Below are positions 20,346 to 35,349 of a stretch of 64,000 nt of DNA, piece by piece. The notes under the pieces are model-generated. The model was not told the origin of the DNA, did no database searches, and was given only the letters and a program-made list of their open reading frames with translations. This DNA comes from Actinomycetota bacterium (lineage in GTDB: Bacteria; Actinomycetota; Actinomycetes; S36-B12). Made by a program: the position numbers and the translations under genes. The DNA is taken from contig CANFQC010000001.1 in the NCBI GenBank assembly GCA_947449035.1, positions 65,659 to 129,658 of the forward strand, read 5' to 3'. How positions within the stretch are numbered: position 1 is the first letter of the stretch; each line of letters begins with the position of its first letter.

Positions 20346-20367
20346 CGCACGGCAGCACCATCAGTAA

Positions 20368-20444
20368 GGCCCCGTAGCGCAGTCGGTTAGCGCGCCGCCC
20401 TGTCACGGCGGAGGTCGCCGGTTCGAGCCCGGTCGGGGTCGCCA
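20368..20444 (+). tRNA. tRNA-Asp (anticodon GTC), CCA encoded
   Basis: Cloverleaf GGCCCCG..CCTGTCACGG..GGTTCGAGCCCGGTCGGGGTCGCCA. Confidence 0.95.
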
Positions 20445-20480
20445 TATCGAAGGTCAGCGAAAGCTGGCCTTCGATTGTTC

Positions 20481-20557
20481 GGCCAGGTAGCTCAGTTGGT
20501 ACGAGCGTCCGACTGAAAATCGGAAGGTCGGCGGTTCGACCCCGCCCCTGGCCACCA
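20481..20557 (+). tRNA. tRNA-Phe (anticodon GAA), CCA encoded
   Basis: GGCCAGGTAGCTCAGTTGGTACGAGCGTCCGACTGAAAATCGGAAGGTCGGCGGTTCGACCCCGCCCCTGGCCACCA. Confidence 0.95.
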
Positions 20558-20595
20558 CACGCTTGTGTCCCCAAGACCAACAGGTCAGTTCACCT

Positions 20596-21399
20596 TTAGT
20601 TCGGCTGTGGGCAACTTGGCAGTGGAATGTCGCCAATGTGATCATGCGTGAGATTTGTCAGTGTCACTTCCATCGCTGTGGGCGCGACTCCACCAGGCGT
20701 GATTGCATATGGGTGATCAAAGAAAGCAATCACCACAAGGGCTGCTGATGCAACAAAAAGCGGGCCAATAATCACAAGGGCATGCGCCCACGCTGGTTTC
20801 TTGGGATCGGCGAAAACGAACAGTGAGCCAATGGTGATCAGGGATCCGAAGATCAGCAGAATCCACAAGATCAGTGGGACGCCGTCGCCGGCAACATTTA
20901 GTCGCTGTAAATGTGCTGTCCAACGCTGAGTATTGGCTTCCTCCCAAATCCCGATTCCATTTGCACCGGCCACAGCAGCATTTGACGCCAAGATCCCATC
21001 CATCGTGTCGACTGTGTTCTTGACTTCAGGGATGGGATTGGAAATTCCTTCTCTCATGGCTGGCCATTCAAGATTGATGACATTTTGCGCGTAGCACACG
21101 AGCTGGTCTCTCAAGGGATCTCGCACTTCAGGGGGCATAAACGTAGCTCCGCGCGACATCGACATCACCGCCCCCGCTTCCTGCTGGGCCGCTTGTTGGG
21201 CACTCAAGTACTGCCCAAATGTCATCGACATCGTGAACGCGATCAACAATGACATCGCGCCGCCTGTAACTACGTACACATTGGTGGGTGTGCGATCACC
21301 GAGTCCACCTGCTGGGCTGATTCGGGAAACCAGAACATAGATAACCGAACCGACAAGCAGCACTAAGCAGATAACGAGAATGGCGATTTGAATGCTCAC
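20596..21399 (-). CDS. DUF4239-like membrane protein
   Basis: 267 aa with N- and C-terminal TM pairs. Central EWPAMREG motif as in DUF4239 proteins. Visibly more A/T-rich than its neighbours. Confidence 0.55.
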   Translation of the reverse strand: MSIQIAILVICLVLLVGSVIYVLVSRISPAGGLGDRTPTNVYVVTGGAMSLLIAFTMSMTFGQYLSAQQAAQQEAGAVMSMSRGATFMPPEVRDPLRDQLVCYAQNVINLEWPAMREGISNPIPEVKNTVDTMDGILASNAAVAGANGIGIWEEANTQRWTAHLQRLNVAGDGVPLILWILLIFGSLITIGSLFVFADPKKPAWAHALVIIGPLFVASAALVVIAFFDHPYAITPGGVAPTAMEVTLTNLTHDHIGDIPLPSCPQPN

Positions 21400-21627
21400 G
21401 CGACGATGATAATCACTTGATTTGCGAAGCGAGACTTTTCAACTCACCGAACCCTGGCCCCTCGATGGGTCAAGTATTGGATCCCACATTCGCCTCCCGC
21501 ACAACATCCCCTGGAATGTCGTCGCAGTGTGAGCTTCGAACACCAACATTCCTTCTCCACCCAACTGTTGACCTCGCCCTGCCCATACGTGAGAGTGTGC
21601 GGATTGTCGGATATCGCAGGGAGTTCT

Positions 21628-22449
21628 ATGCGCATCGTGTGCCAGCAGCTTGCCCCGAGGGTGGGCGAAGACGCCGCAAACTTGACTGCCATTGAGCAAG
21701 CTATTGACGAGGCGTTGGCCTTGGGGGCAGACCTGATCGTGCTCCCTGAGTTGAGCACCAGCGGATACGTCTTCGAGGCCGAGGCCGAGGTGGCCGCGGC
21801 AGCACTCATCCGCGACTCGTCTGTCTTCACTCAGTGGCAGGAGCGCCTGAGCGGTACGGGCGCAGTACTCGCCGCTGGCTTCCCGCTCAAGGATGCGCAT
21901 GGCATCTTCAACGCAGCAGTGCTGCTGGATGAATCAGGCGTACTCGCTGTCTACAAGAAGGTGCATCTCTGGGACGAGGAGAAGCGCTGGTTCGTGCCGG
22001 GTAATGAGGCACCACCTGTGGTCGAGACTCGTCACGGCCGCGTGGGTGTTCTTGTCTGCTACGACCTCGAATTCCCCGAGATGGTTCGAGGCTTGCTGCT
22101 CAAAGGTGCTGAGGTCATCGCGGTCCCGACGAACTGGCCGCTGGGCACTAAGCCCGATCACGAACGTCCAGCCGAGGTTCATGATGCGATGTCGAGCGCG
22201 CGACTTAGTCGAGTGATTGTCGCCTGCTGCGATCGGTGCGGTTCTGAGCGAGGAGTTGCGTTCACCGGTGGCAGCGCCATCATCGGGGCCGACGGTTGGA
22301 TTAAGGCGGAGAGACCAGAGCGTGATGGTGGAGAGGTTGTAGCAGACATCGATATCGCCACTGCGCGAAACAAGACCGTCTCTGCGCGAAACCACACCCT
22401 CGACGACCGCCGACCCGATGTTTACGCTCGGATGAATCTGGGGAACTAG
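21628..22449 (+). CDS. carbon-nitrogen hydrolase (nitrilase superfamily)
   Basis: Catalytic triad contexts LPELSTSGY (Glu), YKKVHLW (Lys), VLVCYDLEFPE (Cys). ATG at 21628 chosen over the upstream track start. Confidence 0.85.
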   Translation: MRIVCQQLAPRVGEDAANLTAIEQAIDEALALGADLIVLPELSTSGYVFEAEAEVAAAALIRDSSVFTQWQERLSGTGAVLAAGFPLKDAHGIFNAAVLLDESGVLAVYKKVHLWDEEKRWFVPGNEAPPVVETRHGRVGVLVCYDLEFPEMVRGLLLKGAEVIAVPTNWPLGTKPDHERPAEVHDAMSSARLSRVIVACCDRCGSERGVAFTGGSAIIGADGWIKAERPERDGGEVVADIDIATARNKTVSARNHTLDDRRPDVYARMNLGN

Positions 22450-23867
22450 CCGTCAACGGAGTTCGATCGCGCTGAGGCAAGCGCACCGATTCTACGTTCG
22501 GCGCGGAAGAGCACAATCCAGCCGAGTAGCGCCACGACAAAGCCCAGAATTCCATCTATGCGAATTGCATTGGCAAGGGCAGCGAGCTGGCCATCACTGA
22601 CAGACGTCACTCCGGCCTCCAGCTGCACGCTGGTGAGGATCGCGGCGCCAAGAAGAGACATACCCAAGACGGTACCTATCGAACTTGCTGCCGTACGGAA
22701 TGCCGACACTTCACCTGTGCGATCAGAAGGCGCGCGGCCCATGACATCCATGTTGAGCACGGTCAATGCGCCCATGCCTGCGCAACTAAAGACGCTGGAG
22801 ATCGCGATGAGGAGCCATAACGGAGTCTCGGGCTGCATCACGATGAGAGGGAGCATGGTGAGGCCTGTGACGAGGATGAGGCCTCGCCCAGCACGCGCCT
22901 TCCCCCAGTGGTGTACTGCTCGCTTTGCGAGAACCTTCGCGCCAAGTATCGCTCCAAGCTGAGCGGGCACGACAACGATCGCAGCCTGGAGGGGTGTCAG
23001 GTCGTAGAAGTACTGAATGGCAATGCAGACGTACGTCAGGATCTGGATGAGCGAGATCAGCACGACACCGATCAAGAGCACTCGCAGCAGGGGGGCGCGA
23101 ATCGAATCGAAGTTGAAGCTCGCTTCGGCGGGCCTTCGCATCATGAAAATGCAGACGACTCCGGTGAGAAGGCTCACCAGGGCACCGATCAGGATCTTTG
23201 TTCCCTCGATCTCGACATTGTCGATCTCGGCGAGCGCAATCGAACCAGCGGTGAGGGAGACGCCGGCGAGGACCGGAGCCAACCAGCCATGATTTGCTCT
23301 CCGCGGCTTGTCCGCATCGAGCACCATCGCCGCGACGATTGCGATGACGAAGCCCGATACGGCCCACACGATGGGGATCCATCGCCAGTTCACCGCATCC
23401 AATACACCTGCGGTAGCAATGGGCAAGATCAGGAAACTGATCGGGAAGACCATTCCGTAGGTGGTGAAGGCCGATACCTGAGCCGCGCCTTCACTTGCTG
23501 TCTTTTGCAGCAGGCTCACTCCGACTACCTGGATGATGATCGCGCCAGCCCCGCAGAGTGCGAGTCCGACATTCACTCCAGTTGGACCCTGAGCCGAAGC
23601 GAGAATCAGTGCACCGAGGGCGAAGAGCAGCCCCGACCAGACCATCGTCCTTCGATCGCCGAGATTGTCACCGACCCGACCGGCTAGGAAGACTACGAGC
23701 AGCGCCGAGACGGCCGGAACTACGAGTGCGTCTTCCACGTACTGGTCAGATAGCCCGAGACTCTCTGCCATTGGAGAAACAAGGAAGGTGAGGCCGGCTC
23801 CCACCAGAAGAGTGAGTCCCACCATGACGCAGACGGCCAACACGACTCTGTGCTGCGCGGCGGACAT
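22446..23867 (-). CDS. MFS transporter (14-TM, DHA2-like)
   Basis: 473 aa, uniformly hydrophobic. GRVGDNLGDRR loop (MFS motif A-like). Confidence 0.8.
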   Translation of the reverse strand: MSAAQHRVVLAVCVMVGLTLLVGAGLTFLVSPMAESLGLSDQYVEDALVVPAVSALLVVFLAGRVGDNLGDRRTMVWSGLLFALGALILASAQGPTGVNVGLALCGAGAIIIQVVGVSLLQKTASEGAAQVSAFTTYGMVFPISFLILPIATAGVLDAVNWRWIPIVWAVSGFVIAIVAAMVLDADKPRRANHGWLAPVLAGVSLTAGSIALAEIDNVEIEGTKILIGALVSLLTGVVCIFMMRRPAEASFNFDSIRAPLLRVLLIGVVLISLIQILTYVCIAIQYFYDLTPLQAAIVVVPAQLGAILGAKVLAKRAVHHWGKARAGRGLILVTGLTMLPLIVMQPETPLWLLIAISSVFSCAGMGALTVLNMDVMGRAPSDRTGEVSAFRTAASSIGTVLGMSLLGAAILTSVQLEAGVTSVSDGQLAALANAIRIDGILGFVVALLGWIVLFRAERRIGALASARSNSVDG

Positions 23868-23958
23868 GACTCAGATCCTAAGTGGGACCTGAGAGGGAGA
23901 CAGGTGGCATTTCGAGACGGATCTTCATGCGAGCCGCTGAACGCGTAGCATTCCCACC

Positions 23959-24303
23959 ATGGCTCAGTACCTCATCTTCTTCAATCAGCAATGGGTCGGC
24001 GACCACTCCGAGGAGTGGTTCCAAGGCCGCGGTCCACTCGCTCGCGCAGTTGTTCAGCGCATGCAGGAGGCGGGGGTTGTCGTCTTCGCCGGTGGCCTTG
24101 TGGAGGAAGTCGAAGAGGCATTCAGTGCCGACACCACCAGCGGAGAACTCATCATGTCGCCCGGACGCTACTCAGAGAGCGATGAGTACCTCGGCGGAAT
24201 GACGATCATCGAAGTGGAAGACGATGCGGCGGCCGCCATGTGGGCGGGCGAGATTGCCGAGGCCTGCGGTTGGCCTCAGGAAGTTCGACGCTTCAAGCCG
24301 TAG
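23959..24303 (+). CDS. YciI-family protein
   Basis: 114 aa; MAQYLIFF start with the alpha/beta pattern of YCII/DGPF proteins. Confidence 0.6.
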   Translation: MAQYLIFFNQQWVGDHSEEWFQGRGPLARAVVQRMQEAGVVVFAGGLVEEVEEAFSADTTSGELIMSPGRYSESDEYLGGMTIIEVEDDAAAAMWAGEIAEACGWPQEVRRFKP

Positions 24304-24337
24304 ATGCTGCCTAGGCCGACACTGATTCCATCGAGAG

Positions 24338-25183
24338 TCACGAACGAGTAATCAACCCACGAGCCTCGAGATCCTTGAGGTACTTCTCCATGCCTCGATC
24401 GCCACGCCCTCGGAAGAGCGGCAAGGCCTTCGGGATCAGGCTTGGCACCAGCATCACCACACGCACAAGCCACGACTCGGAGGGCTTCGGGTAGTACTCG
24501 TACTTGGGCTTGTTGAGAAGCTTGCGAAAAGCCTTCACGACATCGGCCGGCGTCTGTGGCGGGTCCAGGAACTGAAGGGAATTTCCGCCGTCCAGCGCCT
24601 CCTGCCGAAGCATTGGAGTGTCGGTTGCTGACGGCAGAACGGATCCGACAGTAATTCCCTTGGGACCGAGGTCCATTCCGATCGCAAGCATCGCTCCGCG
24701 CAGACCAAACTTCGAAGCCGTGTAGATCGGCGTCTCGCCGAGGGGAAAGATTCCTCCCAGGGAAACTGTGGTGCAAATGCGCGGATCAGTGGACTTGCGG
24801 AGCAGCGGAATTGCCAGCCGGGAAAGGACCAGCGGTGCAAGCAGATTGACGCTCAACTCATGCTCGATACTCTCCACGCTTCGCTCATCAAAGCGATCAG
24901 CCGACGTCATCCCGGCGTTGTTCACGAGGACATCGAGGCGCCCGAACCTCTCATCAATGAAGGCCACCAGCCCTTCGACCTGAGAGCGGTCGGTCAGATT
25001 GATGCCGTAGCCAATGTGCCCAGTTCCCGACAGGGATGCAGCTACCGAATCTGCGCCCTCCCTGTTGAGATCGGCCACGATGACCACCGCGCCGTCAGCC
25101 GCGAGCGACTCCGCCAGCGCCGAGCCAATTCCACCGGCACCTCCAGTGACGAGAATGACCTTGTTCTGTGGGTCGTAGCTCAT
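24338..25183 (-). CDS. SDR-family oxidoreductase
   Basis: VTGGAGGIGSALA, NNAG, YTASKFG. ATG at 25183 forms an ATGA overlap with the stop of the permease-FMO ORF. Confidence 0.85.
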   Translation of the reverse strand: MSYDPQNKVILVTGGAGGIGSALAESLAADGAVVIVADLNREGADSVAASLSGTGHIGYGINLTDRSQVEGLVAFIDERFGRLDVLVNNAGMTSADRFDERSVESIEHELSVNLLAPLVLSRLAIPLLRKSTDPRICTTVSLGGIFPLGETPIYTASKFGLRGAMLAIGMDLGPKGITVGSVLPSATDTPMLRQEALDGGNSLQFLDPPQTPADVVKAFRKLLNKPKYEYYPKPSESWLVRVVMLVPSLIPKALPLFRGRGDRGMEKYLKDLEARGLITRS

Positions 25184-28002
25184 GAGTTCTCCTGGGGCTG
25201 GGCGGATGAGGTAGAGAGCGGACGCATCATCGAGCGATATGTCTCGGCATCGAGATCGGCCCACTCGAAGCGATCACGAAGAGATGCCAAGTAGTCGACG
25301 TAGGTGTCGACTTGCACGTAGGTGGCATGTCGGTCGGAGTCGACATACGTCATGCCACCACTGAGGTCAGGGAAGTCAGACGACTTCAATGATCGGAACT
25401 CATCATGGAATTGGCCAGTCTCACGGGCACGAATGTCGATCACGATCATCTGAGCCATCTCATCGAAACGCGTGTACGCAGCACCGGCGAATTCCGTGAA
25501 ACCAACCACGTACAGGCTGTCGTAATCACGTGAAAAGAGATTGAGATACAGCTTCGGCCGACCTCGGTGCCAGGTAATGAGTTTCTCGTCAAGGAAAGGC
25601 AGCAGATACTGATACCCCGTGGCCAGCAGTACCAAGTCAATCTCTTCGGAGCTCCCGTCCGCGAAGACCACAGATTTACCCTCAAGCCTGGCTACGTCGG
25701 GCTTCGCAATGAGGTCACCATGCTGGAGGTAGTGAATAACCTGTGTGTTCATGATCGGGTGGCTTTCCAGCAGGGCGTGATCTGGCGCGGGGAGTCCAAG
25801 GCGAGTGACGTCACCGACGTAGGCATCAATCATCGAGGTGGCATCCCCCGACAACGAGACCCCCTTCGGCGGCGGAATGACTCCGTAGAGAACTGCATCA
25901 GTCGGCAGCCCGAAGATGTGCTTGGGAACGAAGCGATAGCCGCGTCGAACTGAGAGGTAGGCCTGCGATGCGGACCTAGCGGCATCACAGGCGATATCGA
26001 CTCCCGAATTTCCCGCGCCGACAATGAGTACTCGCCGGTCAGCGAGTTCGGCCGGCTCCCGGTAACTCACCGAATGACGAATCTCTCCAGCGAATGACTC
26101 CGCGCCCGGAAGTTCGGGAATGCTCGGATGCCAGGTAACGCCTGGGCAACCGATGATCCCGTCGTAGTCGCGCACTTCGCCAGTGGACAAGGTGACCGAC
26201 CAACGGTCCTCCGGCAGCGGCACTGCGGCCGCCACACCTACTCCGAGAGTCACATGTTCATACAGTCCGAAATCACGCGCGAAGGCCCGGATGTAGTCGC
26301 GGATTTGATCCCATGACGGATAGTCCGGGTAGTGCGAGGGCATGGGGTAGCCGACAAAGCCGGAGGTGTACTTGGAGCTGATGAAGTGCGCACTTGTGTA
26401 CATCGGGGAGTCTGGATTGTCCATGTTCCAGATGCCACCCACGTCGTCCTGCTTCTCGAACCAATCGAAGGGGACGCCTTCAGCTATGAGCGCACGCGCC
26501 ATGATGAGGCCGGCAGGGCCAGCACCAACAAGGCAGTAGCGACGCGAGTACGCGACTGCGATGGCGTCGGAACGGCGTCGACGACTTCGTACCTGCGCTC
26601 GGGCGATCGCGGCGTATGTCGTGGGCTTTCGGCGACGAATCACTAAAGCCACCACCACACCCGCAATCGCAGCGACGAAAAGCGCCAAGGGGACCGAGTT
26701 CACCATCGCGCTCGAGGAACCAGTAAGGGTCGGGTAATTGATGAAGGCCAGAACGAAGGCTGCCGTGAGACCGATGAATCCGATCGCTGGCGCCACGGTC
26801 TCACGCCACCAATGACGGGATCGACGACCCGCGAAGAATGCAACGACGGAAAGCGAGGCACCGGCCTGAAGCGCGATGATTCCGAGGGTGCCGACTCCGA
26901 GGAGCGCAGGAACAAGGGTCGTGAACGGATCAGCTCCGATGAGCCCGAAGATGCTGATGACCACCAACGCCAGCACCGAAACAAGCACGCTTGCCACGTG
27001 CGGACTGAAGTGCTGGGGGTGATAGTGCCCAAGGCGCTCAGGCAGGACACGCTCGCGACCCAGAGCAAAGAGGTACCGACTGGTTGCGTTGTGAATCGCC
27101 AGGTAACCCGCAAGCACGCTGGTGCACAGCAGCACTGCTGAGATGTCGTACAAGACTTCTCCGCCGTACTGCTTGATGAGATCGAAGACGAATTCACCCT
27201 GAGCCTCGGTGGCCTGCGGAGCAATCGATGCGACTCCTGCGGCCCCGACGATGATCCAACTGGTCAGGATGTAGAAACCACCGATCGAGGCTACGGCGAT
27301 GTAGGTGGCTCGTGGGATCGAGCGCTCCGGATCCTTCGTCTCCTCCCCGTAAAGTGCTGCGGACTCGAAGCCGATGAAGCTAGACATCGCGAACATCAAG
27401 GCGATTCCCAGCGAGCCGCTGAAGGCGTAGGTGGGCGTGAAGGAATCGAGTGGGAAAGCTTCTGCACCCTTGTCGCCGACGATGATGACATCGAAAACGA
27501 TGAGCACGACGAATTCGAGCACCATGAGTGTGCCGAGAACTTTCGCGGATAGGTCAACCGATCGGTAGCCAAGAACCGCAACGATTCCGATAGCTACAAG
27601 CGCCGGGATCCACCAGGCAATAGTGATTCCGAGTCCGTCGAGTACAAGTGCCGTGTAGTAGCCAAAGGCGCCTGCAAGCCCGAATGAGAGACCTCCGTAG
27701 GCGAGTACCGCGACGTATGCCGCTGCCACTCCTGTTGGCTTCCCGAGAGCGCGAGCGATATACGTATAGAAGGCGCCGGTGTTGACGACTCGACGACTCA
27801 TCGCGGCATAGCCCACCGAGAAGCACAGCAGAATCAGAGTTGCGGCCACGAAGGCGAATGGAATTCCCGCCCCATTTCCGAAGATGACCGCAAGCGGGAC
27901 GTTTCCGACCATCGCAGCCATCGGAGCTGCAGCCGCAATGACGAGGAAGACCACCCGACGGGTGCTCAGGGCGGTGCGCGTTCCACCGGTTTCCTGTGCC
28001 AT
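25180..28002 (-). CDS. fusion protein: N-terminal APC-family amino-acid/amine permease (aa 1-457) plus C-terminal class-B flavin-containing monooxygenase (aa 489-940)
   Basis: One uninterrupted 941-codon frame from ATG 28002 (GGAG 6 nt upstream). APC motifs NTGAFYTYIARALG, FIGFESAA. Arg-rich linker. FMO part has CLVGAGPAGL (FAD), FAGEIRHSVSY (FMO motif), VLIVGAGNSGVD (NADPH), LATGY. Confidence 0.85.
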   Translation of the reverse strand: MAQETGGTRTALSTRRVVFLVIAAAAPMAAMVGNVPLAVIFGNGAGIPFAFVAATLILLCFSVGYAAMSRRVVNTGAFYTYIARALGKPTGVAAAYVAVLAYGGLSFGLAGAFGYYTALVLDGLGITIAWWIPALVAIGIVAVLGYRSVDLSAKVLGTLMVLEFVVLIVFDVIIVGDKGAEAFPLDSFTPTYAFSGSLGIALMFAMSSFIGFESAALYGEETKDPERSIPRATYIAVASIGGFYILTSWIIVGAAGVASIAPQATEAQGEFVFDLIKQYGGEVLYDISAVLLCTSVLAGYLAIHNATSRYLFALGRERVLPERLGHYHPQHFSPHVASVLVSVLALVVISIFGLIGADPFTTLVPALLGVGTLGIIALQAGASLSVVAFFAGRRSRHWWRETVAPAIGFIGLTAAFVLAFINYPTLTGSSSAMVNSVPLALFVAAIAGVVVALVIRRRKPTTYAAIARAQVRSRRRRSDAIAVAYSRRYCLVGAGPAGLIMARALIAEGVPFDWFEKQDDVGGIWNMDNPDSPMYTSAHFISSKYTSGFVGYPMPSHYPDYPSWDQIRDYIRAFARDFGLYEHVTLGVGVAAAVPLPEDRWSVTLSTGEVRDYDGIIGCPGVTWHPSIPELPGAESFAGEIRHSVSYREPAELADRRVLIVGAGNSGVDIACDAARSASQAYLSVRRGYRFVPKHIFGLPTDAVLYGVIPPPKGVSLSGDATSMIDAYVGDVTRLGLPAPDHALLESHPIMNTQVIHYLQHGDLIAKPDVARLEGKSVVFADGSSEEIDLVLLATGYQYLLPFLDEKLITWHRGRPKLYLNLFSRDYDSLYVVGFTEFAGAAYTRFDEMAQMIVIDIRARETGQFHDEFRSLKSSDFPDLSGGMTYVDSDRHATYVQVDTYVDYLASLRDRFEWADLDAETYRSMMRPLSTSSAQPQENS

Positions 28003-28066
28003 GAATTCTCCTGCTCTCACTATGGGAGACGCCATGCGGCGTGACCCGTGCCTTGGATCCTGCTGC

Positions 28067-28114
28067 ACGCTGGGGATCTGGTCCAGCGTCATGGGAAAAA
28101 GGTTGCAATTTCCC
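28067..28114. repeat. two adjacent inverted repeats in the divergent promoter region of the permease-FMO / SRPBCC operons
   Basis: ACGCTGG-N9-CCAGCGT (28067-28089) and GGGAAA-N10-TTTCCC (28093-28114), read directly. Confidence 0.3.
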
Positions 28115-28143
28115 TCTGTCCTCATTCGGGTTACCGTGGGCGC

Positions 28144-28632
28144 ATGCCCGCAGAGAAGCCTCGCGCTGAAATCGTCCCCACGAACCACGAGTGGCGGCGA
28201 GCCGGGCGCATCGTGATCAATGCGCCCATCGCCGTGATCTTCGATCTGCTTGCCGATCCCCGCCGACACGCGGATTTTGACGGCTCAGGAACTGTCCAGC
28301 GGCAGATCAAGGGGCCGCTGCGCCTGTCGAAGGGCGCCACGTTTGGCATGGCAATGCGGGTCAAGCTTCCGTACACGATCACGAACACGGTCGAGGAGTT
28401 CGAGGAGCCCTCACGTATCGCCTGGCGACACCTGGGTCGTCATCGCTGGCGTTACGAGCTCGAGGCCGTCGACACAGCCACGACTGTCGTGACCGAGACC
28501 TTTGATGGAAGCACGGCTCTCTTCCCCCCAGCCCTGAAACTCATCAACGCGTATGACAACAACCAGAAGGCCATCCTGAAGTCACTCGTGCAGCTCAAGA
28601 TCATCGCCGAGGAGCTGGCGGCATCCATCTGA
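28144..28632 (+). CDS. SRPBCC-family (polyketide cyclase/START-like) ligand-binding protein
   Basis: IVINAPIAVIFDLLADPRRHADFDGSG..ITNTVEEFEEPSRIAWRH is typical of SRPBCC proteins. ATG at 28144. Confidence 0.65.
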   Translation: MPAEKPRAEIVPTNHEWRRAGRIVINAPIAVIFDLLADPRRHADFDGSGTVQRQIKGPLRLSKGATFGMAMRVKLPYTITNTVEEFEEPSRIAWRHLGRHRWRYELEAVDTATTVVTETFDGSTALFPPALKLINAYDNNQKAILKSLVQLKIIAEELAASI

Positions 28633-28779
28633 TTCGGTCCATCACAGTTCATCTTGAATTGGCCCGACTGTCATGCGCGCATCAGTCATTCGTCACATCG
28701 GCACCTCACCATTTTCTTACTTCCCCAGGAGTCCGTCGCCATTGACGTGACTGCCGACCGCAACGGATGGGGAGTAATC

Positions 28780-28923
28780 ATGATGTCCGAGGAACTTGTC
28801 TGCCCGGTGTGTCATACCGACGACTTCGAGGTAACCCGCAACGCCACTCATGGTTTCGTAGTGCTGTGCAATGAGTGCGGGTTCGCGCGCGGCGCGACTC
28901 TGCAGCACCTGCTCGCCGGCTGA
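28780..28923 (+). CDS. 47-aa zinc-ribbon protein
   Basis: ATG at 28780 with a GGAG SD. CPVC-X19-CNEC four-Cys knuckle pair. Confidence 0.5.
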   Translation: MMSEELVCPVCHTDDFEVTRNATHGFVVLCNECGFARGATLQHLLAG

Positions 28924-29002
28924 CGCTTCCCCTGTCAGCCTGACTGACGCCACGCCTGCAGCCCGGTCGAGCAATCGACCGGTCGCATGCGAGGCTTAAG
29001 CG

Positions 29003-30367
29003 GTGCATCGACGGCAGTTTCTCTCCCTTTCCGCGGCGGCGACCGCCTCGCTTGCTGTTGTCGGTACGTCCACCTCGCAGGCCAGGGCCATGTCGATCCC
29101 GCGCCCCACGGGTTTCATGGCGACCCGCTGGGGCTCAAACCCCTGGGCCCGTGGCTCGTATTCCGCTCTCAGTACTCGGTGCAATCCAAATGCTCGCGAG
29201 ACTCTGGGTGAGGCTCTCGTCGGCGGTCGCGTAGTGCTAGCCGGCGAATACACGAGCATCGACTTTCCTTCCACGACCACTGGCGCGTACCAGTCCGGAG
29301 TCCGTGCGGCACGGCAGTTGATCTCCGAAGTCGAGCCGAGTCGGGTCATCGTGATCGGCGCCGGCATTGCTGGCGCTGCGGCAGCCAAGACTTTGGCGAA
29401 CACCGGCATCGCAGTTCAGGTGCTCGAAGCCAGCGATCGCATCGGCGGTCGCATCAGGTCGTCCACCGAATGGGGTGCTCCCGTTGAGCTCGGGGCGGCG
29501 TGGGTGCACTCCACCAAGGGCAACCCCGTCACCGGCCTGGCAGCCTCCGCCGGGCTCACACTCGTGCCCACCGACTACGGGGACGAAGTCATTCGCGACA
29601 CGGTCACCGGGCGAGAGAGCAGTCAGGCTGAATCCGTTGATGGACGACTCTCGGATCTCACCGATGAACTTGCCGACGACGAAAACTCGCCGACTCTCTC
29701 CGTATCCTCGTGGCTCGCCCGACATGGGTGGAGCCCCAATCGATTCGGACGCTGGGCTCAGGCAGTCGACATCACTCAGGAATATGGGCTGGACCCCTCC
29801 ACGCTGAGTGTCGCTGCACTGCAGGAGGGCGGGGAAGGCGCCGGCGGCGATGCATTCGTCAAGGGTGGTTACGCCGCAATTCCCCGCTACCTCCTCGACG
29901 GTCTTGACGTTCGACTCAATGAACCGGTGTCACGCGTAGAGCCCAACACCTCATCGGTACGAGTACGAACATCACGCGAGTCGCTGACCGCAGATGCAGT
30001 CGTGATCGCCGTTCCACTCCCCTTGCTGCAGGCCGGAATGCCGGGAGTCACGGGAATGACGAAGGGTGTTGCGCGCGCGGTGCGAGGCTTGACGACCGGC
30101 AACCTCGAGAAGGTGATCCTGAAATACGACGAGCAGTGGTGGGGCGATTCGCAGGTGCTCGGCATCGTGGGCGGCGGTGTGCCCGGTGCACCCGATGGCT
30201 CACCGGCCGCCCTGCGCTGGACAGAGTTCTATTCGCTTACGCCACTCGTCGGCTTCCCCGCACTCGTTGGATTCTCCGGCGGACTTGCTGCTCGCACTCG
30301 ACCCGCCACAGATGCAAGTTGCGCTTCGGAGGCGCAAGCCCGTCTCGCTGCTGCATTCCGGCGTTAG
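29003..30367 (+). CDS. Tat-exported flavin amine oxidase (polyamine/monoamine-oxidase family) with circularly permuted sequence order
   Basis: Twin-arginine signal MHRRQFLSLSAAA..SQARA. Aa 31-110 carry the normally C-terminal motif TRWGSNPWARGSYS..VVLAGEYTS..TGAYQSGVRAA. Aa 114 onward carry the normally N-terminal VIVIGAGIAGAAAAKTL..VLEASDRIGGR. Confidence 0.8.
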   Translation: MHRRQFLSLSAAATASLAVVGTSTSQARAMSIPRPTGFMATRWGSNPWARGSYSALSTRCNPNARETLGEALVGGRVVLAGEYTSIDFPSTTTGAYQSGVRAARQLISEVEPSRVIVIGAGIAGAAAAKTLANTGIAVQVLEASDRIGGRIRSSTEWGAPVELGAAWVHSTKGNPVTGLAASAGLTLVPTDYGDEVIRDTVTGRESSQAESVDGRLSDLTDELADDENSPTLSVSSWLARHGWSPNRFGRWAQAVDITQEYGLDPSTLSVAALQEGGEGAGGDAFVKGGYAAIPRYLLDGLDVRLNEPVSRVEPNTSSVRVRTSRESLTADAVVIAVPLPLLQAGMPGVTGMTKGVARAVRGLTTGNLEKVILKYDEQWWGDSQVLGIVGGGVPGAPDGSPAALRWTEFYSLTPLVGFPALVGFSGGLAARTRPATDASCASEAQARLAAAFRR

Positions 30368-30379
30368 GCGTTCCACGAC

Positions 30380-31303
30380 ATGCCACGTCCACTCAGCGCG
30401 ATCCTTGGCCTCATCCTTGTGAGCACAGGACTTCTAGGCATCGCGAACCACGCCGCTGCGGCTTCGGCACTCGATTTGTCAGCTGTTGAACTCAACGTGC
30501 AGCGGGTAAATGCAGCAGGAACGACAATCGCCTGGGCCGAACTCGGCACGGGCTCACCGCTCCTATTGCTCAATGGCACCGCGTCCCCGATGAGCGAATG
30601 GGATCCCGCATTCCTCGCCGGCCTCGCAAATGCGAATCGGGTGATCGTGTTCGACTATCCCGGTCTCGGTGACTCGGGGGCCGCTCCCGGCTCATGGACT
30701 TTCGAACACGCAGCCGACTGGATAGCTGACTTCGCGGCGCGAGTCACCCCAGGCGAGCGTGTCAATGTGCTCGGTTGGTCAATGGGTGGGTTCATCGCAC
30801 AACAACTGGCTATTCGCCACCCTGCACTCATTCGCAATCTGGTGCTCGCGGCGACGAACCCCGGCGGTACCAAGACTGCACTCGGTCCTGCTTGGGTTCA
30901 GGAGATCGACAGCTCGTCATCTTCGGACGCCGACTACTTGCGCACGAATTACCCGCCGTCCGGACGAGCTGCAGGAAAGAGATTCCTGGACCGCCTTTCT
31001 GATGCCTATGACAGCGGCGCTTATCCAGTGACTGAGACCCCCGACCGAACCCTGAAGGCGATGGTTGCGGCAGAGGATCCTTGGCTGAGAAGTAATGACA
31101 ATCTTCGCCAGCTCGGAGGCATCGGCGCACCGACTCTTGTCCTTGATGGCGCGAACGACCTGATCACTCCGAAATCCAACAGCGCGGTGATCGCATCGCG
31201 GATACCAAAAGCGAGACTGCAAATCTTCCCCGGAAGCGGACATTCGTTCCTCTTTCAGAGACCTGAGATCGTGACGGGTGTCGTGAACCGTTTTCTCCGT
31301 TGA
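30380..31303 (+). CDS. secreted alpha/beta-hydrolase
   Basis: Signal peptide, nucleophile elbow GWSMGG, C-terminal GSGHSF. Confidence 0.75.
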   Translation: MPRPLSAILGLILVSTGLLGIANHAAAASALDLSAVELNVQRVNAAGTTIAWAELGTGSPLLLLNGTASPMSEWDPAFLAGLANANRVIVFDYPGLGDSGAAPGSWTFEHAADWIADFAARVTPGERVNVLGWSMGGFIAQQLAIRHPALIRNLVLAATNPGGTKTALGPAWVQEIDSSSSSDADYLRTNYPPSGRAAGKRFLDRLSDAYDSGAYPVTETPDRTLKAMVAAEDPWLRSNDNLRQLGGIGAPTLVLDGANDLITPKSNSAVIASRIPKARLQIFPGSGHSFLFQRPEIVTGVVNRFLR

Positions 31304-31376
31304 GGATCCCGGCACCGACTCGTGAAAACCTGCCCGCCAGCCACAGTTCTGCACCAGTGCCTAGTTAGATAGGCAT

Positions 31377-31946
31377 GTGGAACTGACGCGTATTGGCACC
31401 GAAGGTGCACCTGGAAGGGTGCTCAGAAGCGCCTGGTGGGCCTGGTGGGCATGCGCGATCTCCTGGTTGATCGCCTGCCTGCGGCTTGGCGCCTGGTTCT
31501 TCTCGAATCTGAAGTCGGGCGACGGCAATGACGATCCGATCGGGGCTTTCGGCACCGTGTACGACGCCGGCTACCTGGCCGTCTCCGCCTCCACCTTCGT
31601 AGCACTGGCCTTCGTCGTGCTACTGGCATTTCAGACGAGACGCGGCGGCAAGTTAGCCGTCGCGGTGATCTTGCTCATCATCGGCGGAGTGCTGTTCGCC
31701 TACTTCCGCGAATTCGCTGCATGGATGGTCGCCGCTAAGGGCCTCTTCGCCTTCACCCCGCGCATGGTGAAAATGGACGCCGTCTACACGGTCCTGACAA
31801 TTCTCACGCTGTTCTTCGCCACCCCGAGCTATTTCGGTCAGGCGCTAGTTGCCACCGCACTTGTGCTGACTGCGGTCTTCCTCGTCGTTGCGGCGCGAAG
31901 GTGGCGCGGAGTCACTCGGCTCGTTGAGGCTGACAGACTGCTCTGA
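31377..31946 (+). CDS. hypothetical membrane protein (5 TM)
   Basis: Hydrophobic ORF with no recognisable family; start uncertain. Confidence 0.4.
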   Translation: MELTRIGTEGAPGRVLRSAWWAWWACAISWLIACLRLGAWFFSNLKSGDGNDDPIGAFGTVYDAGYLAVSASTFVALAFVVLLAFQTRRGGKLAVAVILLIIGGVLFAYFREFAAWMVAAKGLFAFTPRMVKMDAVYTVLTILTLFFATPSYFGQALVATALVLTAVFLVVAARRWRGVTRLVEADRLL

Positions 31947-31977
31947 CCCCCATGCAAGGCGCTCAGAACTTCCCGAC

Positions 31978-33099
31978 TTATGCGGTCGTCACCTTGTCGC
32001 CCCAGCGCGGAATCAGTCTCGCAACAATCGCACCGACGAGCGCTGCGGGAACCAGAGTCCAGGTGCCAAAGAGCAAACCAAGCACCACGCCAAGGACGAT
32101 GACGATCCACCACTTCATCGGAGCGGTGGCAATCAGTGAGGCGATCACGCCGACAACGATTGCGGCCGGCACAGACGGACCTGAGTCGCCCATGACGAGT
32201 GAGATGAGGAGTCCGACCGCTGCCCCGACAAACATCGCCGGGAAGAACGGGCCGCCTCGAAAGCCGGATCCCAATGACACCGCGTAGGCAATTGCCTTGA
32301 AGATGATGATGGCGAGAACCGTTGAGACAGTCGTGAGTGCGGGCAGCTTGGTAATGAACTCCTCACCCGACGTCACGATGAAGAGAATCCCTTCACCCGT
32401 GCGACTTTGGACGATCAAGGCGCTAATACCGACGATGAGGGAAGCGGCGATGAGGATCGGCAAGTGGGGGCCGCTACCGGTCGCGCGAGCCAGAAGGGCT
32501 GCGACCGTGCGAGCGAGCGTGACTACGACGGCCACGATGAGCGCAACAACAATGGCCCAACCCAGTTGATCGACCTCGATCGACTCCGGAGCACCGCCGA
32601 GCTCGAGGCTTCCGGAGAGGATTGGCCCTACGAACAGCGCGAGGATCGCACCTAGCGCACCGAAGCCCACGATCTTCTTCTGGTCGGTGGCATCAGTGAA
32701 GTGCATGCGCTTCGCGACAAGTCCGCCGACCATCGAGCCAGTCGTGACGAGCGCAACCTCCGGGCCGAGCACGACGCCACCCCACAGCGAGGCAAAGATC
32801 GCCAGGATCACCCCGACGTACTCCTTGGGCGTGATGCTGCTGACCTTGATACCGCCGATCGGTGAGTGGCCTGCATCGCCGACGTATTTCCGGATCACGA
32901 AGACCAACACTGCTGCGATCACCAGGAGTCCGAGCACATACCAGGCAGGCGTTGACGCCCAGTTCTCGGGAATGGTCTCCCAGATCGCGATGATGCCCGC
33001 GTTGACGATCTCCAGTACGACGTATCCGAGGACCAGCCCGATGATCGCTGCAACCAACATTGCCGGAAGGGGTCGACGGGTCGTGGTTGCTGTAGTCAT
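31978..33099 (-). CDS. short ClC-like (voltage-gated chloride channel family) membrane protein
   Basis: 373 aa, hydrophobic. Segments align with ClC selectivity motifs: GHSPIGG (GSGIP-like), GPEVALV (GREGP-like), GFRGGPFFPAMFVG (GxFxP). Confidence 0.55.
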   Translation of the reverse strand: MTTATTTRRPLPAMLVAAIIGLVLGYVVLEIVNAGIIAIWETIPENWASTPAWYVLGLLVIAAVLVFVIRKYVGDAGHSPIGGIKVSSITPKEYVGVILAIFASLWGGVVLGPEVALVTTGSMVGGLVAKRMHFTDATDQKKIVGFGALGAILALFVGPILSGSLELGGAPESIEVDQLGWAIVVALIVAVVVTLARTVAALLARATGSGPHLPILIAASLIVGISALIVQSRTGEGILFIVTSGEEFITKLPALTTVSTVLAIIIFKAIAYAVSLGSGFRGGPFFPAMFVGAAVGLLISLVMGDSGPSVPAAIVVGVIASLIATAPMKWWIVIVLGVVLGLLFGTWTLVPAALVGAIVARLIPRWGDKVTTA

Positions 33100-33181
33100 G
33101 GCCGTATCCCACCACGAAGCAGGCGGCAGCCGTGCTCGGGTGGCCGTCGCGGCGCGAGAAAATCCTGGCTACTCTGCATTC

Positions 33182-33682
33182 ATGAAGTCCATGCGCACCC
33201 TGTCTGCCCTATTCATCAGCCTTGTGGCCCTCGTCGGCATCGCCGCACCTGCTCAGGCAGTCTCGAATTCCGGAATCACTACGGTCACCGTGTATCACCA
33301 GCCTGTAGTGCCGACGGCAGTGACGGGCACTGGCATTGGCACCGTGCGCTACTTCACGTTGCCCACTGCGGTGAACGGAGTTGCCGCTGACGGCCAGTAC
33401 CTGACAGGCACCCTCACCACCCTCGACACCGGCGTGGCTGGCGGCCAAGAGATCCGTGCCTCGAACCTGATCTTCGTCTTCGGAAGCAGTGAGAATCAGC
33501 TCGTCGTGGGTGGCATCGCGATCTACCCGGCGGCCGGAGCAACACTGGCTGAAGGCGCTCGCGTCGTACGACCTGTCGTCGGCGGTTCCGGCAAGTACGC
33601 AGGCGCAGTCGGACAAGTGACCTCCACCAACCTTGGGGCCAAGGGCTGGACTCACGTCTTCAAGATCCGCATTCCCTCCTAA
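33182..33682 (+). CDS. small secreted beta-rich protein, unknown function
   Basis: ATG at 33182, signal peptide ALVGIAAPAQA. C-terminal VVGGSGKYAGAVG resembles the GGTG motif of dirigent/AOC-like barrels (weak). The 5' part of the track ORF (32687-33181) is a shadow of the ClC gene. Confidence 0.5.
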   Translation: MKSMRTLSALFISLVALVGIAAPAQAVSNSGITTVTVYHQPVVPTAVTGTGIGTVRYFTLPTAVNGVAADGQYLTGTLTTLDTGVAGGQEIRASNLIFVFGSSENQLVVGGIAIYPAAGATLAEGARVVRPVVGGSGKYAGAVGQVTSTNLGAKGWTHVFKIRIPS

Positions 33683-33690
33683 GGAAAAAC

Positions 33691-35349
33691 GTGACGACCT
33701 ACCTCTTCCGAGGCGGATCCATCCGCACGATGGACACCGACAACCCGATTGCCGAAGCTGTGGTCGTCGACGGTGCGACGATCATCTATGTCGGCACCGA
33801 GACTGGGGCGGCAGATCTGCTGCCAGAGAAGTTCGAGGTCATTGATCTCGAAGGAGGCATGCTGCTTCCAGGTTTCATTGATTCGCATGACCATCTCGCC
33901 ACCATGGGCATCGGCAAGCTTGGCGTTGATCTGAGCAAGCTCACCACGATGGAACAAATGCTCGACGCAATCCGGGAATACGTTCACGCAAACCCAGGAC
34001 TCAAGGTCTATCGAGGCTTCGGCTGGATCCCCGCGAGCTTCCCGAATGGCTCACCACGTCGTGAATGGCTCGACGAGATCACCGGCGATACCCCGATGGT
34101 GGTGAATTCCGCCGACTTTCATGACCTGTGGTTCAACACCGCGGCGATGAACGCGGCTGGCATCGACGCATCGACGCCTGATCCTGACGCCAATCAGTAC
34201 TACGTCCGCGACGCAGACGGCACACCGACCGGCCATGCCATCGAGGCCGCTACCTCGTTGCCCATCATGGCTGCGGTCGGAACCTTCACTCTCGAGTGCT
34301 TCCGTGAGGCACAGGCCCTTACCCTCGACCGTGCTCCCTCTTACGGGATCACGACCTATTTCGAGGCAGGTGTCGGCGCAGGCACAACCAGCGCAGATGC
34401 GGAACCTGTGTACGCCGACTTCATCGAGCGCGACAACGACGGAAAACTCGACGTACGCATCGCCGGCACCTACTGGACACGCAGCGAATCAGACGGCATC
34501 GACGAGGTGACCGCAGCGCTCGTTGACTGGAACGGACGTCTGCGTTCGGAGCACGTCACTATTTCTCACTGCAAGATGTGGGCCGACGGCACGCTCTTCA
34601 GCGGGGGGGCACTCTTGCTTCAACCCTCGTGCGGTGCACATCCATCAGTGGGGCGGATGACGTTCAGCGTCGACTACATCGCGGCACAGTTCAAGGCCGT
34701 CCAGGAGGCCGGGTTCGATATGCACGTGCATGTTGATGCCGATGGCTCAGTGCGCACCGTGCTCGACGCGATCGAACGAGTTCAAGCGCAAATCGGTCGC
34801 GGGGAATCGCGGCACGTGATCGCGCATAACAGTCTCGTAGCACCTGAGGACATTCCGCGATTTCGCCAGCTCGGTGTTATCGCGAACTGCACCCCATTGT
34901 GGGGAACCAACTACCACGGCATGTACGCGCAGATTTACACCGACCTGCTCGGCGCCGAGCGTGTCGACGAACGAGTGTTCCCCTACGGAGACCTTGTGCG
35001 CAGTGGTGCTGTAGTTACCTATGGCGCTGACCTTCCAGGCGTTGACGTCGATGAGGTGCCCCCACTGATTCAGATCGAGGCAGCGATCACTCGAAAGCGA
35101 CCTGGCTTTACGGATGACATACCTTTCATCGAGCGCCAGCGAGTGGGCCTCGACGATGCCCTGCGCGCCTACACGATCAACGGTGCCTACCAGCTGCGTA
35201 TGGAGGACCGCATTGGGTCGATCGCGGTCGGCAAGCGGGCAGATCTCGTGGTCCTTGCTCAGGATCTCTATTCCATTTCACCTGAACAGATCCATTCGGT
35301 GCCGGTCCGGCTGACCATGATGGATGGCCGAATCACCTTCGCCGCCTGA
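33691..35349 (+). CDS. amidohydrolase-3 family metal-dependent hydrolase (YtcJ-like)
   Basis: GFIDSHDHL metal motif, HVHVDADG, HNSL and a C-terminal GKRADLVVL motif. Confidence 0.8.
   Translation: MTTYLFRGGSIRTMDTDNPIAEAVVVDGATIIYVGTETGAADLLPEKFEVIDLEGGMLLPGFIDSHDHLATMGIGKLGVDLSKLTTMEQMLDAIREYVHANPGLKVYRGFGWIPASFPNGSPRREWLDEITGDTPMVVNSADFHDLWFNTAAMNAAGIDASTPDPDANQYYVRDADGTPTGHAIEAATSLPIMAAVGTFTLECFREAQALTLDRAPSYGITTYFEAGVGAGTTSADAEPVYADFIERDNDGKLDVRIAGTYWTRSESDGIDEVTAALVDWNGRLRSEHVTISHCKMWADGTLFSGGALLLQPSCGAHPSVGRMTFSVDYIAAQFKAVQEAGFDMHVHVDADGSVRTVLDAIERVQAQIGRGESRHVIAHNSLVAPEDIPRFRQLGVIANCTPLWGTNYHGMYAQIYTDLLGAERVDERVFPYGDLVRSGAVVTYGADLPGVDVDEVPPLIQIEAAITRKRPGFTDDIPFIERQRVGLDDALRAYTINGAYQLRMEDRIGSIAVGKRADLVVLAQDLYSISPEQIHSVPVRLTMMDGRITFAA

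Follow-up and report, generated by a model that had tools for sequence, protein, structure and literature searches.

A probable mosaic of independently inherited modules that places a permease–monooxygenase cassette beside an operon for a putatively exported amine oxidase in a freshwater actinobacterium

The window, which is the whole 64,000-nucleotide stretch of DNA that was analyzed, belongs to a freshwater actinobacterium whose genome is 97.7% complete. Six open reading frames at positions 24338–31303 form two units that are arranged head to head over a 141-nt gap (Table 1). The minus-strand unit consists of a permease-monooxygenase fusion gene and a short-chain dehydrogenase/reductase (SDR) gene that are coupled through an ATGA sequence at 25180–25183. 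The plus-strand unit encodes an SRPBCC protein, a small zinc ribbon, a circularly permuted flavin amine oxidase (pAO) and an alpha/beta-hydrolase (ABH), with intergenic gaps of 147, 79 and 12 nt, the last of which separates ABH from pAO. An earlier sequence-only reading of this DNA had given the same coordinates, the same four gap lengths and the same ATGA coupling, and all of these hold exactly. Its description of a seven-gene cluster is correct in layout but not in number, because seven is obtained by counting the fusion as two genes. The cluster was also described as lacking a regulator, and indeed no regulator gene was found from 20.5 to 36 kb; the absence arises because the TetR gene that accompanies the cassette in many relatives is missing here. 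The nearest relatives are metagenome-assembled genomes (MAGs) labelled Candidatus Nanopelagicales or uncultured actinobacterium, and not Micrococcales as had been supposed. The surrounding chromosome region, which lies downstream of a tRNA Glu-Asp-Phe cluster, is flexible. The GC content over the cassette displays no compositional anomaly.

Table 1. Features of the divergent locus, with positions in the window
Feature	Position	Strand	Basis
YCII-like small protein	23959..24303	+	PF03795 match, weak
Indel segment, 3.8 kb (SDR, fusion and 124 nt upstream of the fusion)	24304..28126	-	blastn synteny against G008 (locus L021)
SDR	24338..25183	-	PF00106 at 151 bits
APC permease::FMO fusion, 940 aa	25180..28002	-	PF13520, PF00324 and PF00743 above cut-off
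Promoter-like block of the cassette	28057..28085	-	upstream-region comparison with relatives
Inverted repeats, two	28067..28114		both within the indel segment
SRPBCC (Polyketide_cyc2), cytoplasmic	28144..28632	+	PF10604 at 30 bits
Zinc ribbon, 47 aa, CxxC...CxxC (CPVC...CNEC)	28780..28923	+	conserved small gene
pAO, circularly permuted flavin amine oxidase with a predicted Tat signal	29003..30367	+	PF01593 at 183 bits, in two stretches
ABH, secreted alpha/beta-hydrolase, S33/PcaD-like	30380..31303	+	PF00561, PF12697; Sec-type leader

The N-terminal part of the fusion protein (residues 1 to ~465) is an APC-type permease with 12 transmembrane helices. Hydropathy analysis delineates ~12 hydrophobic segments followed by an Arg-rich basic linker, and the Pfam matches (PF13520, AA_permease_2, 95 bits; PF00324, AA_permease, 76 bits) assign this half to the APC superfamily of amino acid/polyamine/organocation permeases. 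The C-terminal part (residues ~485–940) contains the motifs GAGPAG (residue 493), FAGEIRHSVSY (637), GAGNSG (662) and LATGY (793) and scores 170 bits against PF00743 (cut-off, 22 bits), by which it is classified as a class-B flavoprotein monooxygenase of the FMO type. In an AlphaFold2 model of the fusion (mean pLDDT of 83), the permease part folds into a helical bundle. The top fold matches of the FMO domain are DiatB (PDB 8z12; TM score of 0.84 on the target) and the Ox domain of LbmA; the same two proteins are matched by sequence in the PDB, with DiatB as the best hit (214 bits; LbmA Ox, 147 bits). The nearness of DiatB and LbmA Ox suggests, by analogy, an import-coupled N-oxygenation of an amino compound. 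The fusion has 523 homologs at E ≤ 0.001, and all 120 of the homologs listed carry both the permease and FMO Pfam domains. A stand-alone permease homolog (49% identical) in genome G025 is coupled to a 348-aa protein without a Pfam match, a context that is uninformative.

The SDR carries the motifs TGGAGGIG, NNAG and YTASK and, together with its Pfam match, is assigned to the classical short-chain dehydrogenases/reductases. An Asp residue after the β2 strand suggests a preference for NAD. The pairing of the SDR with the fusion, already apparent from the window, proved to be a real recurrent unit: an SDR directly adjoins the fusion in 43 of 63 metagenomic loci, and an AKR or HIBADH-type reductase takes its place in other loci. 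The SDR is positioned immediately downstream of the fusion and overlaps it in the window and in L016, L018, L019 and L092–L094, with an orthologous SDR in L016, L018 and L019. A divergent TetR gene (TetR_N and TetR_C_31 domains) is found upstream of the fusion in 12 of 57 loci, and members of Nanopelagicales, Streptomyces and Nonomuraea have TetR, fusion and SDR together in this arrangement. A TetR of the cassette type is absent from the window and from its own 97.7%-complete genome, where the best match is 29% identical and is confined to the HTH region. S-methylmethionine was considered as a substrate on the basis of a homocysteine S-methyltransferase gene beside the fusion in L096, L099 and L101, and by sequence similarity also in L102. 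This clue was rejected, as the gene is found beside the fusion in none of the 80 metagenomic loci.

The 141-nt gap contains the two inverted repeats that the sequence-only reading had pointed out. A custom scan located ACGCTGG-N9-CCAGCGT with 7-bp arms at 28067–28089 and GGGAAA-N10-TTTCCC with 6-bp arms at 28093–28114; both are present but stand out weakly from chance, with P ~0.07 for the 7-bp-arm repeat in Markov shuffles. An automatic inverted-repeat search returned a single palindrome, which spans the SRPBCC start. On the minus strand, a promoter-like block is composed of TGGACC, a 17-nt spacer and CAGGAT, and it is retained in relatives as TTGACC followed by CAGGAT, CAGACT or CAAACT (comparison of the upstream regions of the window, L018, L019 and L092–L094). 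The block is a putative promoter of the cassette. The first inverted repeat overlaps the −35-like box. A consensus sigma-70 scan detected no promoter-like site and terminator-like sites were fewer than in shuffled sequences, although both scans are uninformative for a high-GC actinobacterium. The TetR gene is missing and the promoter-like block is kept; therefore, the cassette is probably expressed constitutively or controlled in trans. Most of the gap belongs to the cassette segment, and only ~17 nt before the SRPBCC start are shared with genome G008.

The plus-strand unit ends in a putatively exported pair. In the PF01593 family, the Rossmann start canonically comes first and the FAD-binding C-terminal segment last, but pAO departs from this order. 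Its residues 29–106 align to residues 697–773 of LSD2, and residues 105–452 align to LSD2 residues 328–695, which maps the permutation that had been proposed and establishes it as real. The top PDB matches of pAO are LSD2, spermine oxidase and PAO. Residues E369 and K370, the latter being the Lys of the EK motif, are invariant among 13 homologs, and pAO is on these grounds classified as a flavin amine oxidase of the polyamine-oxidase/LSD branch (690 homologs at E ≤ 0.001). Its leader, MHRRQFLSL...ARA, retains the RR pair in 12 of the 13 homologs and scores 16.5 bits against PF10518, below the cut-off of 22.7 bits, and export is accordingly a prediction. ABH displays a GWSMG nucleophile elbow and a C-terminal GSGHS motif; this GxSxG element and the Pfam scores (PF00561, 96 bits; PF12146, 53 bits) place it among the S33-like alpha/beta-hydrolases. 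An orthologous ABH follows pAO in L018, L021, L024, L025 and L068, and different secreted alpha/beta-hydrolases flank pAO in other lineages. With a same-strand secreted alpha/beta-hydrolase adjacent to pAO in 23 of 70 loci, the pair noted in the window is a genuine recurrent unit.

The linkage between the cassette and the pAO operon was surveyed in ~200 related loci in all. The fusion survey covered a 10-kb range at 80 metagenomic loci, 37 of which have at least 2.5 kb of upstream sequence, and the pAO survey drew on species-representative genomes and took in 70 loci, of which 35 offer 4 kb or more of upstream sequence. No gene for pAO, SRPBCC, the zinc ribbon, ABH or YCII was found within 10 kb of the fusion at any of the 80 loci, many of which are short metagenomic contigs that lower the power of this absence for some. 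The fusion was likewise found at none of the 70 pAO loci. Among 40 relatives, pAO is present in 15 and the full fusion in one, G011, a phylogenetic profile in which the components do not co-occur as one pathway. G011 is also the sole other genome of the 40 with both proteins, and there the fusion, pAO and SRPBCC are encoded on separate contigs (C11, C33 and C2, respectively). Of five fusion-bearing genomes from other families, four lack pAO and the fifth encodes it 228 kb from the fusion; the two units are unlinked in G011 and G084. At a distant pAO locus, L080, a stand-alone FMO paralogue (36% identical) is located 1.7 kb upstream.

Comparison within the genus shows how the two units are placed relative to each other. 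In blastn alignments, window positions 23955–24302 match positions 803–1150 of L021, the corresponding locus of G008, and window positions 28127–28598 match L021 positions 1190–1661. G008 has the order YCII|SRPBCC–zinc ribbon–pAO–ABH, in which YCII is directly upstream of SRPBCC and its stop codon is ~40–55 nt from the SRPBCC start, a short spacer at the position where the window contains the 3.8-kb cassette. The stretch containing the SDR and the fusion is therefore an indel. YCII and the zinc ribbon of G008 are 79% and 96% identical, respectively, to those of the window. The pAO operon is present without the cassette in G008, G004 and G002. SRPBCC is encoded by six of eight same-genus genomes and is found without a detected pAO in G005, G006 and G007 (G006 being merely 76% complete). 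In G007, the zinc ribbon and SRPBCC precede a CLC gene, and in G005, SRPBCC is followed directly by CLC; SRPBCC and the zinc ribbon are thus kept in some same-genus genomes without pAO–ABH. The position of the zinc ribbon varies, being upstream of SRPBCC in G004 and G007 and next to YCII in G020, and the gene is absent from L018. At L018, the fusion is 94% identical to that of the window, and two extra genes, FUSC_2 and a CN_hydrolase, separate the cassette from SRPBCC. In the lineages of the window and L018, which are diverged to dS of ~0.8–1.8, no more than ~2.3 kb parts the cassette from the pAO operon. Judged from these alignments and gene orders, SRPBCC and YCII are backbone genes, SRPBCC occurring with or without pAO, and each module is present or absent independently of the others at the same chromosomal site.

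All genes of the locus are under purifying selection (dN/dS of 0.03–0.14), with a dN/dS of 0.033 for the SDR in comparison with L018. Between the window and L018, dS values are 0.78–0.89 for the cassette and 0.58–1.78 for the flanks, which are near saturation and not clearly different. These values lend no support to a recent horizontal transfer of the cassette. Stronger constraint (dN/dS of 0.03–0.04) accounts for its higher amino acid identity.

We consider it probable (~0.8) that the stretch is put together as a mosaic from three modules, each inherited independently, which are chance neighbors and do not constitute one amine pathway. The first module, the minus-strand indel segment, would be a self-contained cassette of the permease::FMO fusion and its translationally coupled NAD-type SDR. 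The permease may import a compound bearing an amino group, and the FMO domain would use NADPH and O2 to N-oxygenate the import to a hydroxylamine or oxime, sulfur being a less likely target than nitrogen. The SDR would then act on the carbonyl or alcohol that this produces. The divergent TetR presumably controls the cassette in the many relatives that have it. The second module would comprise YCII, SRPBCC and the zinc ribbon, small cytoplasmic proteins whose backbone genes are loosely grouped. The third would be the exported pair of a Tat-routed, FAD-loaded pAO and a Sec-routed ABH. Outside the cell, ABH could release the amine moiety of a conjugate (amide, ester or peptide), and pAO could convert the freed amine into an aldehyde, NH4+ or a shorter amine, and H2O2, a sequence that may serve nitrogen scavenging. 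The first module is arranged head to head with the other two as a result of the position of the cassette, which in this lineage is flanked by YCII and SRPBCC. As a caution, indels in a flexible region can produce a tidy divergent layout of chemically suggestive genes.

The sequence-only reading had joined the genes into one two-compartment route, in which the exported ABH and pAO process an amine or amide and the permease-FMO and SDR import and oxygenate the product, and it had named a lack of neighborhood conservation in relatives as evidence that would speak against it. The enzyme classes do look complementary, the units face each other over a gap with two inverted repeats, and the adjacency is kept in the window and, in a looser form, at L018. 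However, the neighborhood is conserved at none of the surveyed fusion and pAO loci, the modules are unlinked or missing in genomes that have one of them, each module behaves as an independent indel within the genus, and the shared gap is itself mostly cassette sequence. A single route is therefore extremely improbable. The closeness of the cassette and pAO in the diverged lineages of the window and L018 leaves room for a lineage-specific functional link. The TetR-less cassette and the exported pAO and ABH could have separate origins and now be used together, for example under joint regulation from the gap between them; the persistence of the linkage in two diverged lineages, the loss of the usual TetR and the FMO paralogue near pAO at L080 are consistent with such recruitment. 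Shared ancestry without selection also explains the persistence, two unrelated genes part the units in L018, three same-genus genomes have the pAO operon without the cassette, and no common regulator or operator was found, which renders recruitment unlikely. A more specific version, in which an import-coupled N-oxygenation module lost its TetR in this genus, came to lie head to head with the exported operon and has since been recruited into lineage-specific two-compartment amine scavenging, is decidedly unlikely.

A different chemistry would link the cassette to ABH and not to pAO: the SDR would oxidize a secondary alcohol to a ketone, the FMO would convert the ketone into an ester by Baeyer–Villiger oxidation, and ABH would cleave the ester. 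The probable NAD type of the SDR and the resemblance of the FMO domain to FMO5-like enzymes accord with this scheme, as does G023, where a divergent TAP-like hydrolase and oleA/oleBC/oleD-like genes adjoin a stand-alone FMO–SDR pair. Nevertheless, ABH carries a secretion signal while the FMO and SDR are cytoplasmic, and ABH is next to the fusion at none of the 80 loci. The motif of the domain is the FMO-type FxGxxxHxxxY instead of the BVMO-type FxGxxxHxxxW, its nearest structures are N-oxygenases, and the fusion to an amino-acid-type permease points to an amino substrate. The ketone scheme is thus very improbable.

Under the preferred mosaic reading, the significance of the locus lies in its parts. 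The permease::FMO and reductase cassette is widely conserved but uncharacterized, with hundreds of sequences in Actinomycetota, often together with TetR, and the structures nearest to it belong to N-oxygenating FMOs that form oximes. The pairing of a putatively exported permuted amine oxidase with a secreted alpha/beta-hydrolase recurs in freshwater actinobacteria and may bear on the nitrogen supply of these abundant lake bacteria.

Known systems resemble individual parts of the locus. In the EthA–EthR loci of mycobacteria, a flavin monooxygenase is encoded with a divergent TetR, the layout of many cassette relatives; the TetR is missing in the window, and EthA, a type-I BVMO, lacks a permease domain. 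The phenylethylamine route of E. coli, in which the periplasmic amine oxidase TynA is combined with the cytoplasmic aldehyde dehydrogenase FeaB under the regulator FeaR, provides a precedent for a two-compartment logic of amine oxidation outside and further oxidation inside. However, TynA is a copper/TPQ enzyme and not a flavoprotein, and the route has a dedicated regulator, whereas at the present locus the two halves, exported and cytoplasmic, are inherited separately. DiatB (PDB 8z12–8z17) and SCO7468 of Streptomyces coelicolor have the class-B FMO fold and motifs in common with the FMO domain of the fusion. SCO7468 is an NADPH-dependent FMO that performs two N-hydroxylations of an amino acid to yield an aldoxime (PMC3617294), a chemistry in keeping with the joining of an FMO to an amino-acid-type permease. 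When SCO7468 was sought in control genomes, no Streptomyces was among those reported as matching. Both DiatB and SCO7468 are soluble, stand-alone enzymes of secondary-metabolite clusters and are paired with a prenyltransferase, whereas the FMO domain here is joined to a 12-TM permease and has an SDR as its partner. The oxime-forming Ox domain of LbmA from the lobatamide trans-AT PKS (PDB 8odw), crystallized with NADP and ethyl glycinate, is like the fusion an FMO-type domain tethered to a substrate-delivery partner, but its tether is an ACP within a PKS in a biosynthetic context, instead of a membrane transporter. A literature search found no paper on permease-FMO fusions, PDB 8z12/DiatB or Tat-exported flavin amine oxidases of these bacteria. 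For the exported enzyme, polyamine oxidase, spermine oxidase and LSD1/LSD2 belong to the same PF01593 family as pAO, which keeps the Lys of the EK motif. In pAO, the C-terminal segment of ~80 residues instead follows a predicted Tat leader at the N-terminus, and the enzyme is predicted to be exported, whereas polyamine oxidase, spermine oxidase and the LSD proteins are cytosolic, peroxisomal or nuclear.

Six genes form two divergent units in the window, and the ORF map, translations and Pfam and NCBIfam scans bear out the layout that the sequence-only reading had proposed for both, with plus-strand gaps of exactly 147, 79 and 12 nt. That reading had counted seven genes, which is incorrect given six ORFs. 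On the minus strand, the ATG of the SDR gene overlaps the stop codon of the gene for the permease–monooxygenase fusion (fusion), and a 141-nt gap separates the fusion from the plus-strand SRPBCC gene. As had been stated, no regulator is encoded from the tRNA Glu-Asp-Phe cluster to 36 kb. The two inverted repeats reported from the gap are present; with 6–7-bp arms, they are just marginally unusual (P ∼0.07 for a 7-mer inverted repeat in Markov shuffles).

Features of the two divergent units and their surroundings (ORF map, translations, Pfam and NCBIfam scans; window positions)
Feature	Position	Strand	Characteristics
tRNA Glu-Asp-Phe cluster	20273-20557		
SDR	24338-25183	minus	classical SDR
Fusion	25180-28002	minus	940 aa; APC-type permease (PF13520, PF00324) fused to flavin-containing monooxygenase (FMO; PF00743)
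Inverted repeat	28067-28089		
Inverted repeat	28093-28114		
SRPBCC protein	28144-28632	plus	
Zinc ribbon	28780-28923	plus	47 aa
pAO	29003-30367	plus	flavin amine oxidase with RRQFLSL leader
ABH	30380-31303	plus	alpha/beta-hydrolase with Sec-type leader

The SDR–fusion cassette, the small cytoplasmic proteins and pAO with or without ABH most probably compose a mosaic of independent modules rather than one cluster (probability about 0.8). Neighbourhood conservation, the check named alongside the proposal of a single seven-gene amine-oxidation cluster, was run from both the fusion side and the oxidase side and did not link the two units. On the fusion side, tblastn searches with every window protein covered 9 annotated contexts and 80 metagenomic loci (flanks of up to 10 kb; at least 2.5 kb upstream in 37 of the 80). 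Within these flanks, pAO, the SRPBCC protein, the zinc ribbon, ABH, the small protein YCII, the nitrilase-like gene and the amidohydrolase were all absent from each of the 80 metagenomic loci. The sole fusion context that holds both units is a contig (L018) of a very close relative, with a 94% identical fusion; FUSC_2 and CN_hydrolase genes stand between the units there, and the zinc ribbon is absent. A functional link confined to this lineage is unlikely.

On the oxidase side, the fusion was found in none of 70 pAO loci from species-representative genomes, 35 of which offer at least 4 kb upstream. A stand-alone FMO paralogue occurs near pAO in one of the 70 alone, from a distant Nanopelagicales MAG (L080 1034-2308; 36% identical, 1.7 kb upstream of pAO, same strand). 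Genome profiles agree with the locus counts. Among 40 relatives, pAO is present in 15 and the full-length fusion only in G011, where the fusion, pAO and SRPBCC genes lie on three separate contigs. The fusion occurs in 8 genomes of an even sample of 400 from the class; four of five checked fusion-bearing genomes lack pAO, and the fifth carries it 228 kb from the fusion. On present evidence, the proposed single cluster is not a functional unit.

Gene order at the corresponding locus (L021) of the same-genus genome G008 is that of the window (YCII, SRPBCC, zinc ribbon, pAO, ABH, CLC and ion channel), with merely a short spacer between YCII and SRPBCC. Window positions 24304-28126, which comprise the SDR and the fusion with 124 nt of its upstream sequence, have no counterpart there. 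Homology restarts at GGGTTACCGTGG, ∼17 nt ahead of the SRPBCC start, and the cassette segment thus takes in both inverted repeats and most of the supposed shared promoter region. The difference represents either an insertion in the window's lineage or a deletion in G008. In other same-genus genomes, CLC follows the zinc ribbon and SRPBCC without pAO or ABH (G007) or directly follows SRPBCC (G005), and G004 has the zinc ribbon ahead of SRPBCC and lacks ABH. These patterns show that three units segregate independently: SDR and fusion (module A); YCII, SRPBCC and zinc ribbon (module B); and pAO with or without ABH (module C). Between the window and L018, the cassette dS (0.78–0.89) is not clearly below that of the flanks (0.58–1.78), and its dN/dS is 0.03–0.04 against 0.085–0.14; the higher protein identity of the cassette is therefore attributed to stronger constraint.

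A 189-aa membrane protein without a Pfam match and an Amidohydro_3 gene (window 31259-31995 and 33681-35409) are further indels relative to G008. In G011 (L013), the fusion has an Amidohydro_3 ortholog (71% identical) at a distance of ∼5 kb. Across same-genus genomes, the region from the tRNA cluster to the ion-channel gene (20273-36183) stands out as a hotspot where gene content varies, namely in the nitrilase-like gene, MFS, FUSC_2, the cassette, pAO–ABH and the amidohydrolase; no integrase or transposase was seen in it.

In module B, the 47-aa zinc ribbon is strongly conserved (96% identity with G008). It and SRPBCC occur without pAO in other genomes, where the zinc ribbon adjoins YCII, as in G020 (L108 2375-2888), or stands alone. 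Its position also varies, being after SRPBCC in the window and before it in G004 and G007 (L105 3445-4111).

Members of the fusion family of module A number 523 (E≤0.001) and range from MAGs of freshwater Nanopelagicales type to Streptomyces and Nonomuraea. In the permease part, ∼12 hydrophobic segments precede a linker rich in Arg, an arrangement that puts the FMO on the cytoplasmic side; mean pLDDT is 83 in the AlphaFold2 model. The FMO part retains both GxGxxG motifs, the FMO-type FxGxxxHxxxY motif and LATGY. Among solved structures, the closest to the FMO part is 8z12 (214 bits; TM 0.84 on target), confirmed to be DiatB; ancestral animal FMOs and the Ox domain of LbmA, crystallized with ethyl glycinate, come next. 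SCO7468 is an FMO that converts an amino acid to an aldoxime by double N-hydroxylation (PMC3617294).

The fusion is constantly accompanied by an NAD(P)-dependent carbonyl/alcohol oxidoreductase. In 43 of 63 loci this is a directly adjacent SDR, represented by at least two sequence types and found in both orientations; elsewhere, an aldo-keto reductase or HIBADH-type enzyme stands in for it. A divergent TetR gene is found in 12 of 57 fusion loci, with further examples from Nanopelagicales, Streptomyces and Nonomuraea. The window's upstream block (TGGACC-17 nt-CAGGAT) matches those of TetR-bearing relatives (TTGACC followed by CAGGAT, CAGACT or CAAACT), and a cassette-type TetR is absent from its genome.

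In some more distant lineages, a homocysteine S-methyltransferase gene (PF02574) adjoins the fusion (L096 4976-5848, L099 4360-5283 and L101 4280-5332), with a HIBADH-type dehydrogenase on the other side in L099, L101 and L102; none of the 80 metagenomic loci showed the methyltransferase. A stand-alone permease (49% identical to the permease half of the fusion; L014, G025:C66, 1690-4208) has as its translationally coupled neighbour a 348-aa protein without a Pfam match, which may be an alternative enzyme partner. A stand-alone FMO (47% identical to the FMO half) with an SDR (62%; L015, G023:C54, 7846-16486) is flanked by a divergent TAP-like alpha/beta-hydrolase gene and genes resembling oleA (KAS III-like), oleBC (hydrolase and AMP-binding fusion) and oleD (3-beta-HSD-type reductase).

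For module C, alignment verified the claimed circular permutation of pAO: residues 29–106 correspond to the last 77 of LSD2 and residues 105–452 to the preceding part. The family has 690 homologs (E≤0.001), the majority from freshwater Actinomycetota MAGs, and the permutation runs through all 13 aligned members, in which the EK motif is invariant and the RR leader is conserved in 12. A same-strand secreted alpha/beta-hydrolase adjoins pAO in 23 of 70 loci, either as the ∼310-aa downstream type of the window's group or as a ∼650-aa TAP-like upstream type in another group, often with a Zincin_1 protein downstream. This recurrent, non-orthologous pairing supports a probable functional link between the two enzymes. 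In a clade ∼55% identical to the window's pAO (L043 5931-7883, L046 11299-11649 and 13–19 similar loci), the order is secreted TAP-like hydrolase (∼650 aa), pAO, Zincin_1 (PF06262) and often a cytosine/purine-type permease, and a Sua5 gene lies 3–4 kb downstream in 18 loci.

Outside the cell, the hydrolase would free an amine from a conjugate and pAO would oxidize it. In module A, the permease would bring in an amino compound, the tethered FMO would oxygenate its nitrogen, and the reductase/dehydrogenase would then act on the resulting carbonyl or alcohol, in the window presumably without the usual repressor. The two-compartment logic of the sequence-only reading recalls the E. coli TynA–FeaB route, whose components are inherited together and possess their own dedicated regulator, whereas the parts in the window lack such joint inheritance. 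Only in its architecture is the cassette comparable to loci that pair TetR with a monooxygenase, such as EthR–EthA.
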